A DNA stretch of 6,699 bases from the IMG/VR virus record IMGVR_UViG_2529292716_000007. One strand, given 5' to 3'. The stretch comes from a virus (taxonomy: Duplodnaviria > Heunggongvirae > Uroviricota > Caudoviricetes). Both the position numbers and the translations under genes were made by a program. Shown here in pieces: positions 1 to 6,699 of this stretch (position 1 is the first letter of the stretch; the number at the start of each line of letters is the position of its first letter). The notes under the pieces are model-generated. The model saw nothing but the letters and a program-made list of their open reading frames with translations. It did not search any database and was not told where the DNA came from.

Positions 1-457
1 TTAAATGTCTTTCCATTCCCTCCCTCGTCCGTCACGGTATTTATCCGTCATGCTGGATGAACGATGTCCAAGGAGCGCCTGAGTGAAATCACCGCCTTTT
101 TCTGCTGAGTGCAGGCGACCGGATAAACTTCGGATTTCATGAAATGGCGGTGGGTCACCTTCCCATTTCAATCCGGATGTGTCTCGGGCAATCCTGAACT
201 GTGCTGCGATTGTCCTGGCTGTCTTCCCTCCGAGTAACTTTTCGTTTTTACCGTTTATTTTTTTCAAGTTATCCAGTACATCGGCAAGTGTTAAATTCAA
301 TCTGGAAATCGTGGTGGGGAGAGAAATGCGAATTTTTGCCCCTGTTTTTTGTTGTTCCACGTATAGCCTGCCATCTCTTATATCCTCCCATCTCATAGCC
401 GCCAGATCTCCTTCGCGCTGTCCTGTTACCAGTGCAAGATCCATGCAAAGGCCGAAC
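1..457 (-). pseudogene. int: Lambda-family tyrosine integrase, C-terminal catalytic fragment; N-terminal part replaced by IS600
   Basis: Minus-strand ORF ends with the stop at 1-3 and a C-terminus ...HEIRSLSGRLH...LLGHRSSSMTDKYRDGRGREWKDI, closely resembling the lambda Int C-terminus (R/H boxes and catalytic Tyr in the LLGH...Y motif). The reading frame runs into the IS600 left end at 458, so the first codons of the track ORF (MSVKLRLPQ) are IS-derived and most of the N-terminus is absent. Confidence 0.8.
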
Positions 458-521
458 TGAGGTAGCCTGAGTTTAACGGACACTCCTTCCTGAAATAGAA
501 TGGCATCAGAAGGAGCTAATA

Positions 522-824
522 ATGAGCAGAAAAACCCAACGTTACTCTAAAGAGTTCAAAGCCGAAGCTGTCAGAACGGTTCCTGAAAATCAACTTTCGA
601 TCAGTGAAGGCGCTTCCCGATTATCTCTTCCTGAAGGCACTTTAGGACAATGGGTTACCGCCGCCAGAAAAGGGCTCGGTACTCCTGGTTCCCGCACGGT
701 GGCTGAACTGGAATCTGAAATTCTGCAACTGCGTAAGGCGTTAAATGAAGCTCGCCTTGAGCGAGATATATTAAAAAAAGCAACAGCGTATTTTGCACAG
801 GAGTCGCTGAAAAATACGCGTTAA
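522..824 (+). CDS. IS600 OrfA, IS3-family transposase N-terminal HTH/leucine-zipper subunit
   Basis: 100-aa ORF MSRKTQRYSKEFKAEAVR... with an HTH and a C-terminal leucine-zipper-like segment (LQLRKALNEARLERDILKKATAYF), the conserved IS3-family OrfA architecture. An A-rich SD-like stretch (AGAAGGAG) lies upstream at about 508-515. Confidence 0.85.
   Translation: MSRKTQRYSKEFKAEAVRTVPENQLSISEGASRLSLPEGTLGQWVTAARKGLGTPGSRTVAELESEILQLRKALNEARLERDILKKATAYFAQESLKNTR
773..780 (+). other. Putative -1 programmed ribosomal frameshift site (A AAA AAA G) joining orfA and orfB
   Basis: A7G run at 773-780 sits in the orfA 0-frame (TTA AAA AAA GCA). A -1 slip puts the ribosome into the orfB frame (start positions congruent to 2 mod 3). 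Position near the 3' end of orfA matches IS3-family frameshift windows. Confidence 0.6.
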
Positions 825-859
825 TCGAACAATGGCGACAACAATTTCCCATTGAAGCG

Positions 860-1678
860 ATGTGTCAGGTATTTGGTGTATCCAGGAGCGGTTATTACAA
901 CTGGGTACAGCATGAACCCTCAGACAGAAAACAAAGTGATGAGCGGCTAAAACTGGAGATTAAGGTGGCACATATCCGCACTCGCGAAACATATGGAACC
1001 CGGCGGCTCCAGACGGAGCTGGCAGAGAATGGCATCATCGTTGGTCGTGACCGACTGGCACGTCTTCGTAAGGAGCTAAGGCTACGCTGTAAGCAGAAAC
1101 GCAAGTTCAGAGCGACTACGAACTCGAACCACAATCTGCCAGTTGCGCCAAATCTGCTGAACCAGACGTTCGCTCCTACAGCACCAAATCAGGTCTGGGT
1201 GGCGGACCTGACGTATGTTGCCACACAGGAGGGATGGTTGTACCTCGCTGGCATCAAAGATGTTTATACGTGCGAAATTGTCGGCTACGCCATGGGAGAG
1301 CGCATGACAAAAGAGCTGACAGGTAAAGCCCTGTTTATGGCGCTCAGGAGCCAGCGCCCACCTGCCGGGCTAATCCACCACTCTGATCGAGGTTCACAGT
1401 ACTGCGCATACGATTACCGGGTCATACAGGAGCAGTCTGGTCTGAAAACATCAATGTCGCGTAAAGGTAACTGTTACGACAACGCTCCGATGGAAAGCTT
1501 CTGGGGAACGCTGAAAAATGAGAGCCTGAGCCACTATCGTTTTAATAACCGGGATGAAGCCATCTCAGTAATACGGGAATACATTGAGATTTTCTACAAT
1601 CGTCAGCGTCGTCACTCTCGTCTGGGGAATATCTCCCCGGCAGCCTTCAGGGAAAAATATCATCAGATGGCTGCTTAA
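860..1678 (+). CDS. IS600 OrfB, DDE transposase catalytic domain, normally made as an OrfAB fusion by -1 frameshifting
   Basis: 272-aa ORF in the -1 frame relative to orfA. It carries the DDE triad context (WVADLTY, HHSDRGSQY, ESFWGTLKNE) typical of IS3-family transposases. The frame is open upstream of the first ATG back towards the slippery site, so the biological product probably spans 522-1678 with a shift near 773-780. Confidence 0.85.
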   Translation: MCQVFGVSRSGYYNWVQHEPSDRKQSDERLKLEIKVAHIRTRETYGTRRLQTELAENGIIVGRDRLARLRKELRLRCKQKRKFRATTNSNHNLPVAPNLLNQTFAPTAPNQVWVADLTYVATQEGWLYLAGIKDVYTCEIVGYAMGERMTKELTGKALFMALRSQRPPAGLIHHSDRGSQYCAYDYRVIQEQSGLKTSMSRKGNCYDNAPMESFWGTLKNESLSHYRFNNRDEAISVIREYIEIFYNRQRRHSRLGNISPAAFREKYHQMAA

Positions 1679-1721
1679 AAAAAGAACAAATGGTAGTGTC
1701 CGCTATTGCCAGTACACCTCA

Positions 1722-2070
1722 ATTGCTCTGCGGCTTCGCTCAGAGCTGGCGTATGTTCCCGGCCTACTGATTCACACAGGTAATCAACGAAACCGGACAC
1801 CAGTTTTCGTTCGCGAGGCGTGATCGCCCCACCGACCGGAGTCCAGTAATCGAAACCCAGTTGCAGGAGTTTGAAAAAACGCTTGTGGAATGCGTAGTTA
1901 CACACACGCTTAAAGTCTGCGTGTATCCACTCACCTATTTTGATTTGATGCAGAAAATCGCAACTCTCCGGCGTCGCCGGGAGAAGTAATCCGGAAGAGG
2001 TTTGTTTGACCAGTTGTATATGTGCCATCGGCTTTCTCCGGTGGCACGGTGTTACACAGCAGGAGTTCAA
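1722..2070 (-). pseudogene. Hypothetical phage protein, 3' end truncated by the IS600 insertion
   Basis: Minus ORF whose last ~15 codons (…RCTGNSGHYHLFFF) lie inside the IS600 right end, so the native C-terminus is missing. Two candidate starts: ATG at 2070 overlapping the upstream stop as ATGA, or ATG at 2028 preceded by GGAGA at about 6 nt. No family recognised. Confidence 0.5.
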
Positions 2071-2354
2071 TCCTGCTCAAGATTGTAGATGAGTTTATTC
2101 TTCAGCAAAAGCAGAAAACCAGCCTTAAAACCAATCTCTTTCAAAACCCGTAATGATGTGACAAATTCGTCCTCACGCAAAATAAAACCGTCCGTCAGAA
2201 GTCCATTACAAAAATAAAATAACACAGCACCGCTCTTCCTTTGTTGAGATTGCAAACATCTAATGCGGCAATGGCTGACAATCGCTCCATTCTCAACGCG
2301 CACAGCATAGAGGCCATTTTCACTAAAAATTTCACGCAATTCTTCGATTTTCAT
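2067..2354 (-). CDS. Hypothetical protein, 95 aa
   Basis: ORF MKIEELREIFSENGLYAVRVENG... with an SD-like GGAAGGA about 10 nt upstream of the ATG at 2354. Its stop overlaps the next start (ATGA at 2067-2070), suggesting translational coupling. Function not recognised. Confidence 0.5.
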   Translation of the reverse strand: MKIEELREIFSENGLYAVRVENGAIVSHCRIRCLQSQQRKSGAVLFYFCNGLLTDGFILREDEFVTSLRVLKEIGFKAGFLLLLKNKLIYNLEQD

Positions 2355-2470
2355 CTTCAGAATCCTTCCAGATAAATAGCTCTCCCCTGTTCGGGGTCCA
2401 TCCCTCTTCTCCCTGCGCGCTACTTAAGTGAGTCGATTCTATCTGCGAAGGTGCGCGAATCAAATTCACC

Positions 2471-2528
2471 GGAAATAAACAACAAAAAACCCGCCGAAAC
2501 GCTGAGAGATCACAGCGATGGGCGGGTT
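2471..2528 (-). terminator. Rho-independent terminator at the 3' end of the hok transcript
   Basis: On the minus strand: GC-rich stem AACCCGCC...GGCGGGTT (plus 2488-2495 / 2521-2528) with a nested stem CGCTG/CAGCG, immediately followed by a U-tract (TTTTTTGTTGTTTATTT, plus 2471-2487). Confidence 0.6.
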
Positions 2529-2603
2529 AAGTGCGGGTGCGTTGAGGATGCCTGACACATCAGAGGTGGGCGGGGATGGGATCAGCTCCCCGCCCGGTCA
2601 CTC

Positions 2604-2759
2604 TTACTTCCTGGATTCGTAGTCTACGAAGACAGCGACCTCCGTCTGGCCGGTTCGGATTCGTACCTCACAGAGGTCTTTCCTCGTTACCAGTGCCGTC
2701 ACTATGACGGTTAAACAGATGACGATCAGGGCGATTAACATCGCCTTTTGCTGCTTCAT
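2604..2759 (-). CDS. hok: Hok/Gef-family type I toxin (small membrane-depolarising peptide)
   Basis: 51-aa product MKQQKAMLIALIVICLTVIVTALVTRKDLCEVRIRTGQTEVAVFVDYESRK: single transmembrane helix plus the conserved RKDLCEVRIRTGQTEVA Hok/Gef periplasmic motif, recalled as near-identical to chromosomal Hok proteins (HokD/RelF, HokC/Gef). AAGGAG SD lies 9 nt upstream of the ATG. Confidence 0.9.
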   Translation of the reverse strand: MKQQKAMLIALIVICLTVIVTALVTRKDLCEVRIRTGQTEVAVFVDYESRK

Positions 2760-2816
2760 AGCCTGCTTCTCCTTGCCTTTCGGCATGTAAGAGGCTAACC
2801 TACATGTGCAAAGCAT
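2604..2816 (-). CDS. mok: Mok-like leader ORF, in-frame N-terminal extension of hok (MLCTCRLASYMPKGKEKQA-Hok)
   Basis: 70-aa ORF from the track; the ML.TCR...K.KEK.AMKQ pattern resembles chromosomal MokC as I recall it. GAGG lies about 9 nt upstream. Assigning a Mok role is by analogy only. Confidence 0.5.
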   Translation of the reverse strand: MLCTCRLASYMPKGKEKQAMKQQKAMLIALIVICLTVIVTALVTRKDLCEVRIRTGQTEVAVFVDYESRK

Positions 2817-2935
2817 GAAATTGGCCTCAGATTAATGTTAAGCGTCTTGCCGGACGCGTAATGTTAACTGGGGCTTTTCTCTATCTGCCTTTTGGTGTTC
2901 ATGCCTGAAGCAGATAGCCTCAAGCACCCGCAGTC

Positions 2936-2965
2936 ATTCTACTTACCTCGCCAATATGAAATCAA
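2936..2965 (-). promoter_or_regulatory. Candidate sigma-70 promoter of the hok/mok mRNA
   Basis: Minus strand reads TTGATT (plus 2960-2965), an 18-nt spacer, then TAGAAT (plus 2936-2941). The predicted start near 2929 puts the 5' element TGCGGGTGCTTGAGG at the transcript start, consistent with the 5'/3' complementary pair noted in the findings. Confidence 0.45.
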
Positions 2966-2986
2966 TCAGAAAGGTGCCCCATAAAA

Positions 2987-3673
2987 TCACTCCTTCTCTT
3001 CTTTACCGTAGTGGAGTTGACCAATTTTGATAAGAGGGCGTCCCTGAGATTTGCGGTGTAGATTGGTATCGCGCAGAGAATACACACAGCCACAATATTC
3101 CTGCTGATAGAATTTTTCGCGCTTGCTGATTTCAATCATACGGGACGAGCCGCCCTGCTTGCGCCAGTTATAATCCCAGTACACCATGCCCGGATAATGC
3201 GCGACGGCTCGCCGCCCACAGTCGTTAACCTGCTGCATATTTTTCCAGCGTGAAATGCCCAGTGAACTGCTGATCACACTGAAACCATTTTCAGCGGCGT
3301 ACAGCGCTGTCCGCTCAAAACGCATGTCAAAACACATGGTGCAACGGATCCCTCGTTCGGGCTCCCATTCCATTCCTTTGGCTCGTTCAAACCAGTTGTC
3401 TGTGTCGTAATCAGCATCAATAAACGGCACGCCGTGTTGTTCAGCAAAGCGAATATTCTCATCCTTACGAATTAAATACTCTTTCTGAGGATGAATGTTC
3501 GGGTTGTAGAAAAAGATGGTGTAGTCGATTCCCGAGGCCTGAAGCGCCTCCATCACCTCACCGGAACATGGAGCACAGCAAGAGTGCAGTAGTAGTTTGT
3601 TTGCCCCGTTTGGGAGCTCCAATTTGGGCCGTTTGAAATCAGCAACTGTCATAAATATGTTTATTGGGGTCAT
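2987..3673 (-). CDS. DUF208/QueH-like (epoxyqueuosine reductase family) putative Fe-S protein, 228 aa
   Basis: ORF with an N-terminal [14 protein letters not shown] motif that I recall as the cluster-binding signature of the QueH/DUF208 family, plus further Cys pairs (CTMCFD, CGCVY). Assignment is from motif memory only. No convincing SD before either candidate start (3673 or 3652). Confidence 0.55.
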
Positions 3674-3792
3674 AAAAATATCAAAGAGTGTAGCATTAGA
3701 ACGGGGCTATCGGAAACAGATGTGTGACTGCTCCCCGCCCTTTCGGGTGGTCTCCTGATGATTTGAGGGTGCAGAAATCCCTCCGGTTAAGG

Positions 3793-3821
3793 ATTAAATT
3801 TTTAACAGTGCTAAATTTAAT
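3793..3821. promoter_or_regulatory. 9-bp perfect inverted repeat ATTAAATTT-N11-AAATTTAAT; candidate operator/protein-binding site
   Basis: Seen directly: 3793-3801 is the reverse complement of 3813-3821, separated by 11 bp, in an AT-rich intergenic stretch at the stop of the 3821-4234 ORF and upstream of the QueH-like gene. Confidence 0.3.
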
Positions 3822-4234
3822 TATTCAGTTCTGGATTTTGTCGCCCTGCGTATCCGCGCTTTCGCGTTACGCTCAATCTGTATCAGCTTTTCTATATTTC
3901 TCCGCCTTTCCTGTTCCTCCTGGCGCAATAGCCTTACATCATCTGCCAGTCTGGTTTCTCTTTTTGCCACAGAGAGCATCCAGTCAAACGGCTCCACAAC
4001 CGCACCGCAGATTTTACAGCGGACCTGACGCTCTTTTTCGTCAACCCGTACAGAGGCGTGATGGCAATATGGTCTTTCCGATGGCTCATAAAGAAAATTA
4101 ACCTGATTACGAGGGTCATCCTCTTTTACCGGAAATAAAACGATATTGCTTAACTCATCTTCTGGTTTTATTTCCATGCTCCTCTCCTTTGATGCGAATG
4201 CCAGCGGTAATTGAAGCCTGATAGCTAATTTCAT
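3821..4234 (-). CDS. Hypothetical small protein with putative zinc-ribbon (C-H-H...C-x2-C) and basic coiled-coil C-terminus
   Basis: ORF with an AGGAGG SD 11 nt upstream of the ATG at 4234, which directly abuts the stop of the upstream ORF. An alternative start at 4177 (MEIKPEDE...) has AAGGAG 6 nt upstream. Contains YCHHASVRVDEKERQVRCKICG followed by a charged heptad-like tail (LLRQEEQERRRNIEKLIQIERNAKARIRR). Family not recognised. Confidence 0.55.
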   Translation of the reverse strand: MKLAIRLQLPLAFASKERSMEIKPEDELSNIVLFPVKEDDPRNQVNFLYEPSERPYCHHASVRVDEKERQVRCKICGAVVEPFDWMLSVAKRETRLADDVRLLRQEEQERRRNIEKLIQIERNAKARIRRATKSRTE

Positions 4235-4657
4235 TCACAGTATCGCCTCCTGAAAATTACCCTGATAGAAAGCCAGTACACGCTGCATAGCTTCGCTCTT
4301 CCGGCACTCGCGACAGATTATATTCAGGCGCCTGTCGTAGCGGCGTATTTCTCCGTCAGGTAATGACCAGATAAGGTCCGGATCAACAACAACCGGTTTC
4401 CTCACCTTTACTCTCGAGAGTTTTTTGCGGGCGCTTTGCCAGTCCTTGCGAGCCTGTTCAGACGGGAATAAGCCGTAGCCAGAATTATATACATCACCAC
4501 TTGCGACCAGTTCTATGCATAAGCGACCGACAGACGCACGACTGATACCTGTTTCATCTGACAACTGCCGAATCGTGACCCGACCGTCCTGATGCACGAG
4601 TTCCACAATTCGCGTCTTCAGTTCTTCCCGCTGTTCGGGAGTAAAAGGTTTCGCCAT
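4235..4657 (-). CDS. Putative winged-helix DNA-binding protein, 140 aa (possibly YdaW-like)
   Basis: ORF with a strong SD (CAGGAGG) 5 nt upstream of the ATG at 4657, 14 nt after the DnaC-like stop. The N-terminal region (RVTIRQLSDETGISRASVGRLCIELVASGDV) looks like an HTH/winged-helix. Position immediately downstream of the DnaC-like gene matches ydaW in the Rac gene order; homology not verified. Confidence 0.55.
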   Translation of the reverse strand: MAKPFTPEQREELKTRIVELVHQDGRVTIRQLSDETGISRASVGRLCIELVASGDVYNSGYGLFPSEQARKDWQSARKKLSRVKVRKPVVVDPDLIWSLPDGEIRRYDRRLNIICRECRKSEAMQRVLAFYQGNFQEAIL

Positions 4658-4671
4658 AAATCCTCCTGAAA

Positions 4672-5418
4672 CTACTTAACAACCCTCGAATGGCTAACAT
4701 TCGGACGCCAGCTCTCCCAGTTAAAATTCACCCAGCGCCCGCCGTTCATGACCATGCGATCCATCACCCGCTCGCCGAGCAATGTTTTCATCACCTCATA
4801 GTTCAGGTTTGTCAGCATCCCCACGCTGCGCATCGACGCTGTCCGGCGATCAACAATCTGGTGCAGCACCACCTGCTCGTTTTTCGTCTCGCGCTGAATG
4901 CCAATTTCATCAAGAACCAGCAGATCCACTTCGCACAGCTCCCGCAAAAATTTTTCGCCTGACTGCCCGTCGTCATAGCTGGCGTGCAGGGCGCTCATAA
5001 CATCAGCCACGGTAACCACAATCACTGTCTGACCGTCTTTCAGCAGGCGATTCCCGATAGCTGCCGCTAAGTGATTCTTCCCGGTACCAGGTTTTCCGCT
5101 GAACGCAAAATTTGTACACCCGGTCATCAGTTCATCGGCGATGGATTTCGCCTGGCTTAACGCGTATCGCTGGCCGTCGTTCTGCACCTGGTAATTCGCA
5201 AACGAGCATTTACGGTGCAACGGCTGGATGCCTGAGCGATTCAGAATTTTTTCCACCCGCAACTGGCGATTCAGGCGGTTGATCTCCTCGCTACGTTTCT
5301 GGCCTTCAGCAAGTTGCCACTCGCGCCACTCCGCTACCGTTCTGAATGGGGCGGTTACATGTGGCGGGGTCAGTCGGCGGATGCGTTCCAGAACGCCGCC
5401 TGTCGCAATATTTTTCAT
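4672..5418 (-). CDS. ydaV: DnaC-like AAA+ helicase loader, prophage replication protein (YdaV-like)
   Basis: 248-aa ORF with Walker A (FSGKPGTGKNHLAAAIG) and Walker B (DLLVLDEIG), the DnaC/IstB-like ATPase fold. Length and N-terminus MKNIATG... match my recollection of Rac prophage YdaV. It follows the initiator gene with a 6-nt gap, as in phage O/P-type modules. Confidence 0.8.
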   Translation of the reverse strand: MKNIATGGVLERIRRLTPPHVTAPFRTVAEWREWQLAEGQKRSEEINRLNRQLRVEKILNRSGIQPLHRKCSFANYQVQNDGQRYALSQAKSIADELMTGCTNFAFSGKPGTGKNHLAAAIGNRLLKDGQTVIVVTVADVMSALHASYDDGQSGEKFLRELCEVDLLVLDEIGIQRETKNEQVVLHQIVDRRTASMRSVGMLTNLNYEVMKTLLGERVMDRMVMNGGRWVNFNWESWRPNVSHSRVVK

Positions 5419-5772
5419 GGTCCGTTACCCCCTGAAGCCTGGCGGGATCGCACTGTCCGGCAACGAGACGGTGTTAACCTGTCGGAGCAACGTCTCAGGC
5501 CGAACACCTTTCGGCGCGAACAGGCCCTGGTATTCATTGGCGATGCTGTGTCGAATCACCTGCTCAGGTGTAAAACCCTGCTGACGGAATTTTTCCAGTT
5601 CCCGTATCGCCCCGTTAGCGCCCTGCTCCGTTCGAATCGGTTTTCGCAATGCCTGTCTGAACCGGACCCACTCATGCCAGAGTGTTTCCGGCAACCAATC
5701 GGGCAGCTCAATAGCCTCCGGCTCGAATTTTTTAGACGCTCGTTTTTGGCGAGGGGGAGATCAGTATTTAGA

Positions 5773-5817
5773 TCTTCCTCTTCCTCTTCCTCTTCCTCTT
5801 CCTCTTCCTCTTCCTCT
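5773..5817. repeat. Hexanucleotide microsatellite (TCTTCC)7.5, i.e. (GAAGAG)n on the coding strand, encoding a poly-Glu tract
   Basis: Seen directly: 45 bp of perfect TCTTCC repeats. In the minus frame that is open across it, it reads as 14 consecutive Glu; the other two minus frames read (RG)n and (KR)n. Confidence 0.95.
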
Positions 5818-5960
5818 GGTAACGCTTTTTGATCCGTTTGTGTAACGCTGGCAGCGTTACCTTTTCGTTTCAGTTCGCGTATTTTTGTTACTCGCTCGTT
5901 TGTAACCGCCCGTTTTTTTTAGAGCTTTTTCCGTTATGACGTTCAAAGTTAGGTAGAGAA
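5818..5960. repeat. Iteron-like repeat cluster (GTAAC core, including a perfect 9-bp palindrome) adjacent to a T-rich tract; candidate phage origin embedded in the initiator gene
   Basis: GTAACGC at 5819 and 5842; palindrome GTAACGCTG-G-CAGCGTTAC at 5842-5860; TTTTGTTAC at 5882-5890; TTTGTAACCGCC at 5899-5910; then T8 and an AT-rich stretch at 5911-5960. Lambdoid origins lie inside the initiator gene as iterons plus an AT-rich region. Confidence 0.35.
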
Positions 5961-6085
5961 AGCCCTCCGTCATTTTCGACCAGCCATCCAACCTGAATTA
6001 ACGCATCAGCAAAACCAGACATAAAAGTGATGCGATCTATTGCACTTTTTGTAACGCCGCGAGCGTTACAATCTGCATTACCGTC

Positions 6086-6699
6086 TGGATTTGCCCCTAT
6101 ATTTCCAGACATCTGTTATCACTTAACCCATTACAAGCCCGCTGCCGCAGATATTCCCGTGGCGAGCGATAACCCAGCGCACTATGCGGATGCCATTCGT
6201 TATAATGCTCGAACGCCTCTGCAAGGTTCTTTGCTGCCGTTAACCCGTCTGGTTTGGGCATGATACTGATGTAGTCACGCTTTATCGTTTTCACGAAGCT
6301 CTCTGCTATTCCGTTACTCTCCGGACTCCGCACCGCCGTGTTCTTCGGTTCAAGTCCCAACATCCGGGCGAACTGGCGTGTTTCATTAGCCCGGTAGCAT
6401 GAACCATTATCCGTCAGCCACTCCACTGGAGACGACGGAAGATCGTTGCCGAAGCGGCGTTCCACCGCTCCCAGCATGACGTCCTGTACTGTTTCACTGT
6501 TGAAGCCGCCGGTAGTCACCGCCCAGTGCAGTGCCTCACGATCACAGCAGTCCAGCGCGAACGTGACACGCAGTCTCTCTCCGTTATCACAGCAGAACTC
6601 GAACCCGTCAGAGCACCATCGCTGATTGCTTTCTTTCACGGCCACTCTGCCTGTATGTGCCCGTTTCGATGGCGGTACAGCAGGTTTTCGCTCAAGCAA
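6086..6699 (-). mobile_element. IS2 (IS3 family), right-end portion; element continues beyond the window
   Basis: Plus strand from 6086 reads TGGATTTGCCCCTATATTTCCAGACATCTGTTATCACTTAACCC, the reverse complement of the IS2 right terminus (...GATGTCTGGAAATATAGGGGCAAATCCA) as I recall it, followed by the InsD coding region. Confidence 0.9.
6097..6699 (-). CDS. insD: IS2 transposase InsD (OrfB), 5'-partial at the window edge
   Basis: ORF product ...[31 protein letters not shown]...[31 protein letters not shown] matches the IS2 InsD C-terminal region from memory; stop at 6097-6099. Confidence 0.9.

Follow-up and report, generated by a model that had tools for sequence, protein, structure and literature searches.

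The 6,699-nt stretch of viral DNA analysed here (hereafter the window; IMG/VR record IMGVR_UViG_2529292716_000007) carries a row of minus-strand genes transcribed in the order ydaV, a 140-aa open reading frame (ORF), a 137-aa ORF, a 147-bp spacer, a 228-aa ORF and the type I toxin–antitoxin locus hok/sok (Table 1). The three co-directional ORFs between the gene of the DnaC-like helicase loader and hok, which an initial annotation had described as one uncharacterised block, lie where that annotation had placed them. Sequence comparison also supports its view of the region as an accessory location, namely the nin-equivalent variable slot of a Rac/lambda-like prophage. The first ORF encodes a DUF977 protein, the second a zinc-knuckle protein with a long helix, and the third, queH, a member of the epoxyqueuosine reductase QueH family. 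We consider it probable that the slot holds three separate cargo genes, the last of which, a captured queH, gives a cobalamin-independent second epoxyqueuosine (oQ) reductase acting on host tRNA.

Table 1. Features of the window, in order of position.
Feature	Position	Strand	Evidence or remark
Tyrosine integrase, C-terminal fragment	1-483	-	PF00589; abuts the IS3-family element
IS3-family element (HTH_Tnp_1 orfA, then rve orfB)	522-1678	+	
DUF1367 gene, IS-truncated	1675-2070	-	profile positions 1-102 of 198 left
hok/sok type I toxin–antitoxin locus	2604-2929	-	typically found next downstream of the queH cassette
hok	2604-2816	-	PF01848, E 1e-22
sok RNA	2754-2929	-	Rfam RF01794, 117 bits
queH single-gene cassette, ~740 bp (approximate limits)	2985-3723	-	segment common to different prophage backgrounds
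queH, epoxyqueuosine reductase QueH, longest ORF 228 aa	2987-3673	-	PF02677, 7lc5, Cys set
Spacer between zinc-knuckle gene and queH, 147 bp	3674-3820		
TGCTACACT, candidate extended -10 (TGn-TAnnnT)	3687-3695	-	~34 nt before the Met8 codon, within the 50 bp shared along with queH
Perfect 9-bp A/T-only inverted repeat ATTAAATTT/AAATTTAAT, 11-nt loop	3793-3801 and 3813-3821	.	just past the zinc-knuckle stop
Zinc-knuckle and long-helix protein gene, longest ORF 137 aa	3821-4234	-	PHROG 1621, E 5e-56
DUF977 (YdaW-type) protein gene, 140 aa	4235-4657	-	PF06163, PHROG 142; at the lambda ren position
ydaV, DnaC-like helicase loader	4672-5418	-	NF009043, E 8e-154; PHROG 50; upstream neighbour
Second IS3-family element	6087 onward		rve transposase at 6097-6699, minus strand

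The queH gene and its chromosomal relatives

By profile, sequence-homology and residue criteria, the third gene encodes a bona fide member of the QueH (PF02677/DUF208/IPR003828) family, as the initial annotation had proposed. Its product matches PF02677 over profile positions 1–174 of 175 with an E value of 1.9e-65 (220.6 bits, against a cut-off of 23.5), and its residues 27–203 align to residues 4–178 of the Thermotoga maritima QueH structure, PDB 7lc5 (E 5.3e-22). An exhaustive search found 4755 relatives. Cysteine conservation was read from an alignment of 152 sequences, comprising 150 representatives of 50%-identity clusters (37–82% identical to the query), the query itself and the T. maritima enzyme. 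All seven family cysteines, C32, C33, C36, C111, C114, C194 and C196, are kept in the window protein (H-x-C-C-A-P-C, C-x-x-C and C-G-C), and each of these positions is a cysteine in 89–138 of the 152 sequences, the remainder being mostly alignment gaps. The 11-residue cysteine motif from which the family had originally been recognised corresponds to residues 27–37 of the 228-aa ORF, and homologues have not lost it.

Like the T. maritima enzyme, the window protein is a single domain of ~220 aa that covers the full length of the family domain and carries the CC/CxxC/CxC cysteine set. It differs in being prophage-borne rather than encoded at a core chromosomal site, in a short extra C-terminal tail past the matched region (residues 204–228), and in having Cys36 where the T. 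maritima enzyme has Asp13. This last substitution was considered as a catalytic-site difference and dropped, because cysteine is the family norm at position 36 (115 of 126 aligned sequences).

The start of the protein is probably Met8 (ATG at 3652), which gives 221 aa, because the NCBI Prokaryotic Genome Annotation Pipeline (PGAP) calls Met8 and the orthologue from an Erwinia-like genome aligns from the same residue. RefSeq/PGAP already names the gene QueH in ~1000 Escherichia coli genomes, and PHROGs labels the same family 'unknown function'. The family is a known one, and "uncharacterised" was too strong a word for this member of the block.

The closest relatives of this QueH outside E. coli are 80–90% identical at the amino-acid level and lie in ordinary chromosomal, non-phage contexts. 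Specifically, queH is found between purL and glrK in the Erwinia-like genome, beside tmcA in Providencia and in a non-phage neighbourhood in Photorhabdus; the contig of the closest relative of all, at 90% identity, likewise places it among non-phage genes. The similarity to housekeeping queH is at the level of orthologues, without an added domain or a change of motif, and extends to the start position and to an extended -10-like element present in the Erwinia-like and closest copies. Unlike these chromosomal genes, set among purL/glrK, tmcA and others, the window copy is flanked by the DUF977 gene and hok/sok and moves with prophage mosaics. Capture of queH from an Enterobacterales chromosome appears to be the best explanation of this pattern.

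Linkage, cassette structure and selection

DNA matching queH is present in 995 of 5426 complete E. coli genomes, and in 985 of the 995 it covers at least 80% of the query. Outside these chromosomes the gene occurs in 189 IMG/VR contigs and in the viable temperate phage HannyBb (96.5% identical), which is the sole convincing phage among deposited phages with QueH; human-faecal 'Bacteriophage sp.' contigs, 32–50% identical, were left out of this count. Two records deposited as 'Acinetobacter phage MD-2021a' (CAKLQH020000001.1 and a sister record, 330–380 kb) were rejected as QueH phages, since they look like mislabelled bacterial chromosome, with a 78%-identical QueH encoded among soxR, dadA and a type VI secretion system gene.

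The neighbours of queH in these genomes show that the three genes are independently assorting cargo and not one system, with the DUF977 and zinc-knuckle genes acting as interchangeable neighbours. The zinc-knuckle gene occurs in 1680 of the 5426 E. coli genomes and DUF977-type DNA in ~4042, in both cases mostly without queH. Only two genomes, both near-identical to the window, have queH adjoining the zinc-knuckle gene; in 958 it lies directly downstream of DUF977, and in at least 741 it is contiguous with hok. The picture is similar among the 80 IMG/VR contigs most closely related to the window: in 62 the DUF977 gene ends 193–199 bp upstream of queH with the zinc-knuckle gene absent between them, 11 repeat the trio, and 63 have hok 231–245 bp downstream of queH. 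The block as first drawn is thus not a conserved unit, and a three-gene operon or system was rejected on the co-occurrence counts.

That the three genes nonetheless form one module for defence, counter-defence or regulation, with the two small proteins controlling or partnering QueH, is suggested by their tight, co-directional packing in the window and by the recurrence of the trio in those 11 contigs. We regard such a module as very improbable, given the two E. coli genomes with the trio, the frequency of each gene without the others, and a homology break inside the spacer. In addition, searches of PADLOC-DB returned no match for QueH or for the zinc-knuckle protein and only two faint matches for DUF977, at the level of its helix-turn-helix (HTH). 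A defence or counter-defence role, which the initial annotation had raised, was rejected on this result; neither PADLOC nor the annotations of the prophage stretches read gave any sign of defence, counter-defence or DNA-modification partners.

The limits of the shared segment are consistent with this picture. Homology to other queH prophages ends upstream at position 3723, 50 bp upstream of the long ORF, and in prophages that lack queH the hok/sok homology ends at ~2945–2985. These two breaks define queH as a single-gene cassette of ~740 bp in the variable slot, and its presence or absence varies between otherwise similar prophages, as is typical of a moron. No terminator-like site was called in the spacer or between the genes. 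Because a terminator bounding the cassette was not found, the gene fits only half of the classical moron definition. On the other side of the cassette, the sok match starts ~57 bp past the queH stop codon, which places the cassette directly next to the regulatory end of hok/sok.

A candidate extended -10 element, TGCTACACT, falls within the 50 bp ahead of the long ORF that are shared along with queH. By chance, 0.01 copies of this 9-mer would be expected in the window, which has one. The loci of E. coli prophages and of HannyBb and three Erwinia-like chromosomal loci have a single copy each, invariably a short distance upstream of queH; the closest chromosomal relative has TGCTAAAAT aligned at this position. 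From this conservation we infer that a native queH promoter may have been captured along with the gene.

The initial annotation had described the spacer as AT-rich with a palindrome: its length and the 9-bp inverted repeat are as reported, but it is only mildly AT-rich (42% GC, against ~46–53% in flanking windows), and its predicted fold is not unusual (z -0.9). The A/T palindrome (3793–3821) sits in the window-specific part of the spacer, which does not travel with queH. The usual DUF977–queH spacer has another palindrome instead, GTCTGCTTTG..TCAAAAGCAGAC (13200–13260 in the APEC O1 locus, L002; 8880–8940 in the HannyBb locus, L013). A regulatory RNA or terminator in the spacer was considered and rejected, since Rfam gives only sok, the fold is ordinary and no terminator-like site was called.

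Between prophage copies of queH, the ratio of non-synonymous to synonymous substitution rates (dN/dS) is 0.02–0.05 at dS 0.09–0.22, which means that amino-acid changes are removed and that the gene is under strong purifying selection. This observation bears directly on the possibility that QueH is a neutral passenger, retained only through physical linkage with the hok/sok addiction locus and the mobile nin mosaic. Such a passenger would fit the constant redundancy of queH with queG, the close and frequent linkage to hok/sok described above, and the fact that no phenotype separating oQ from queuosine (Q) is known. It is contradicted by the dN/dS values, by the intact catalytic cysteines and by the coverage of at least 80% of the query in almost all queH-bearing genomes, and we consider it improbable.

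Proposed role of the prophage-borne QueH

De novo cobalamin synthesis is absent in E. coli, and queG, the gene of the cobalamin-dependent oQ reductase, is present in all 5426 genomes. Since every E. coli relies on this enzyme and cannot make its cofactor, a prophage QueH would add a B12-independent route. In the mechanism that we propose, the conserved CC-x2-C, C-x2-C and C-x-C cysteines of QueH would hold a [4Fe-4S] cluster with a further metal next to it, and the enzyme would reduce oQ to Q at position 34 of the host tRNA-Asp, tRNA-Asn, tRNA-His and tRNA-Tyr. The lysogen or the infected cell would thereby gain a way to finish Q that is independent of B12.

This proposal draws on established biochemistry of the pathway. 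The full Q pathway has been established in E. coli (PMC5372724); QueG is cobalamin dependent (PMC4646009), and QueH is its cobamide-independent alternative (PMC6461909). The prophage QueH resembles E. coli QueG (yjeS) in the conversion of oQ to Q on tRNA that is predicted for it and in being an Fe-S enzyme (PMC4646009, PMC9508795). The two differ in fold and family, which are unrelated, in the requirement for cobalamin, which QueG has and QueH has not (PMC6461909), and in distribution, QueG being core (5426 of 5426 genomes) and QueH accessory (995). A parallel exists in Staphylococcus aureus, where QueG and QueH, non-homologous and with different cofactors, coexist in one cell, an arrangement read as tracking cofactor availability (PMC13443448). 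Both genes are chromosomal in S. aureus, whereas here the second oQ reductase comes on a prophage.

Phage-borne genes of the queuosine/archaeosine pathway are known from the 7-deazaguanine DNA-modification clusters, such as that of phage 9g, in which DpdA is found with FolE, QueC, QueD, QueE and QueF. Unlike these clusters, which combine the preQ0 branch with a DNA transglycosylase, the system described here has only the Q-specific last enzyme, and a transglycosylase is not annotated in the prophage and phage stretches read. According to a survey of 7-deazaguanine genes in phages, none of the viruses it covered encodes a homologue of QueA, QueG or QueH (PMC6884629), and no discussion of phage- or prophage-borne QueH was found in the queuosine and phage literature searched.

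The same clusters raise the question of whether QueH has been co-opted for a substrate other than tRNA, such as 7-deazaguanine in phage or host DNA, free nucleotides or the product of a defence system. Phages do use the preQ0 branch to modify DNA (PMC6884629), and QueC-family proteins act in defence systems according to one report (PMC13639016). The window protein, with its 80–90% identity to housekeeping QueH, no added domain and no altered motif, argues against such a change of substrate. Moreover, no tgt/dpdA, queA or queC–F gene was annotated in the stretches read (27 kb of each of two prophages and 18.7 kb of the 45-kb HannyBb genome), so that an oQ-like substrate could not be placed in DNA. 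We hold this to be the least probable of the readings considered, and a radical variant, in which the non-tRNA substrate is tied to phage–host conflict, keeps only a small residual probability. The tRNA genes that lie downstream in intact relatives, Ile, Arg, Thr and Gly in one prophage (L001, 9589–9899) and Thr and Gly in another (L002, 8738–8891), include none of the Q-accepting species (Asp, Asn, His and Tyr), which indicates that QueH does not serve to mature phage-encoded tRNAs.

With host tRNA as the preferred substrate, several points weigh against the proposed role as a whole. At the level of the gene, no Shine–Dalgarno (SD) sequence is recognisable at either candidate queH start, a match to the NCBIfam QueH model is absent even though PGAP names the protein QueH, and a consensus promoter scan did not call TGCTACACT, in which 7 of the 12 core positions and the TG agree with the consensus. 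At the level of the cell, no clear oQ-versus-Q phenotype is known, and deletion of queG left growth unchanged in one reported condition (PMC11841063); together these two points make the selective benefit of QueH conjectural. Finally, queH lies in the delayed-early transcription path and could therefore serve lytic growth rather than the lysogen.

In this last alternative, queH would be transcribed from pR with the nin genes and would act mainly in the lytic cycle, completing Q on host tRNA and thereby optimising the decoding of NAU and NAC codons in phage mRNAs. Such a use would fit the location of queH, which is flanked on one side by the replication genes and on the other by the late-gene regulator region and points the same way as the early operon. 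It would also fit the retention of queH in the viable temperate phage HannyBb and the lack of a terminator-like site separating it from the upstream genes. On the other hand, the cassette has the conserved promoter-like element common to chromosomal queH, and the gene is intact and identical in an IS-eroded remnant whose initiator gene is truncated; Q maturation within one cycle would also presumably meet a large pre-existing tRNA pool. Taken together, these considerations make a mainly lytic function unlikely, although less so than the other alternatives.

Returning to the proposed B12-independent oQ reductase, a broader form of the idea is that lambdoid prophages spread a cobalamin-independent Q-finishing enzyme in E. 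coli, and that lysogeny shifts tRNA from oQ to Q when B12 is scarce. We offer this form tentatively, at slightly less than even chances. If it is true, QueH would be the first enzyme dedicated to the tRNA-queuosine branch to be carried by phages, and its transfer would be a lysogenic conversion that acts on the translation apparatus. If the enzyme is active, about 1 in 5 E. coli strains, including avian pathogenic E. coli (APEC) O1, enteroaggregative E. coli (EAEC) 042, O157 and sequence type 131 (ST131) isolates, would complete Q without B12, and the rest could not. Phages would then deliver strain differences in tRNA modification, and phage auxiliary metabolic genes would gain a new tRNA-modification entry.

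The two small proteins and the prophage background

The two small proteins add only members to well-populated families of unknown function. The initial annotation had found no nameable family for either. The first in fact falls into PF06163 (DUF977) and PHROG 142, and the second into PHROG 1621, a family of unknown function.

The DUF977 protein matches PF06163 over all 134 profile positions (1–134 of 134, E 1.1e-33, 116.5 bits against a cut-off of 22.1) and falls into PHROG 142, 'Ren-like exclusion protein', with an E value of 2.7e-44. The winged helix first proposed for it is borne out by matches to HTH_24 and HTH_IclR above cut-off and by the AlphaFold2 (AF2) model, in which an N-terminal winged helix has predicted local distance difference test (pLDDT) scores >90 at residues 10–70 and matches GntR, IclR and MarR domains in Foldseek (E ~5e-3, probability 1.0). 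In line with this, DUF977 had already been placed in the winged-helix fold by Kinch et al. in 2009 (PMC2686095). The gene resembles the ren/nin cargo of lambda, where the slot likewise varies between related phages: it begins 14 bp past the ydaV stop, as lambda ren directly follows P, and its product aligns directly with lambda Ren only over a 20-aa C-terminal motif that is 60% identical. Unlike Ren, the DUF977 protein has an additional winged-helix domain at its N-terminus. Most probably it is an early protein that binds DNA; no link to QueH could be demonstrated.

For the second protein, which had been proposed to be a zinc-ribbon/coiled-coil protein, conservation and modelling support a zinc knuckle followed by a long helix. 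Residues C38, H40, C54 and C57 (C-x-H...C-x-x-C) are invariant in 39 Enterobacterales homologues, which also share a near-invariant basic helix after the knuckle (consensus LRxEExQRRxNIEKLIQIERNAKARIRR). The AF2 model has two short hairpins followed by a long helix at residues 63–117, with pLDDT mostly >90 from residue 80. Similarity to the TFIIB-type zinc ribbon PF08271 stays under the cut-off (21.1 bits against 29), and a structure search gave no significant PDB match (best E 0.64). Translation probably begins at ATG 4177, giving a coding sequence of 3821–4177 and 118 aa, because the SD sequence AAGGAGAGGAGC precedes this codon, all homologues start there, the alignment to PHROG 1621 begins at residue 20 of the longer ORF and PGAP calls a gene of 357 nt. 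The direct abutment of the first two genes with SD-like sequences does exist, in that the TGA at 4237–4235 meets the ATG at 4234; with the probable start at 4177, however, it may not be the functional arrangement. The gene is often fused to or beside ead/Ea22-like sequences. Most probably its product is an early protein that binds nucleic acid or other proteins; for it, too, no link to QueH could be demonstrated.

The window as a whole is, from its gene content and colinearity, best described as a remnant of a Rac/lambda-like prophage eroded by insertion sequences (IS). Positions 1722–6086 are colinear with an intact prophage of E. coli FDAARGOS_944 at 99.2% identity. Positions 2–457 match the integrase of that prophage in inverted orientation and ~9 kb out of place, and this inversion and displacement imply an IS-mediated inversion or deletion. 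At the other end, the replication-initiator gene (O-like/YdaU-like) is broken into two minus-strand ORFs, 5425–5694 and 5888–6112, and its 5' end is cut by the second IS. With its initiator gene split and cut in this way, the remnant would hardly be able to replicate. Despite this damage, ydaV, the DUF977 gene, the zinc-knuckle gene, queH and hok are all intact.

Three minor features complete the description of the locus. A 95-aa minus-strand ORF at 2067–2354, beside the truncated DUF1367 gene, matches neither a Pfam family nor a PADLOC model. Inside the O-like gene lies a perfect tandem repeat of the hexamer TCTTCC (7.5 copies, 5773–5817); the 16 positions at which the alignment to the intact prophage is gapped may fall in this repeat, which could be a repeat-length polymorphism or iteron-like. 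Lastly, the nin region of lambda holds NinC (41081–41953), annotated as PAPS-reductase-like (3'-phosphoadenosine 5'-phosphosulfate, PAPS), and the Joint Genome Institute (JGI) tags several QueH homologues as members of the adenine nucleotide alpha hydrolase superfamily; the nin slot may thus repeatedly host enzymes of the broad PAPS-reductase/alpha-hydrolase fold class.

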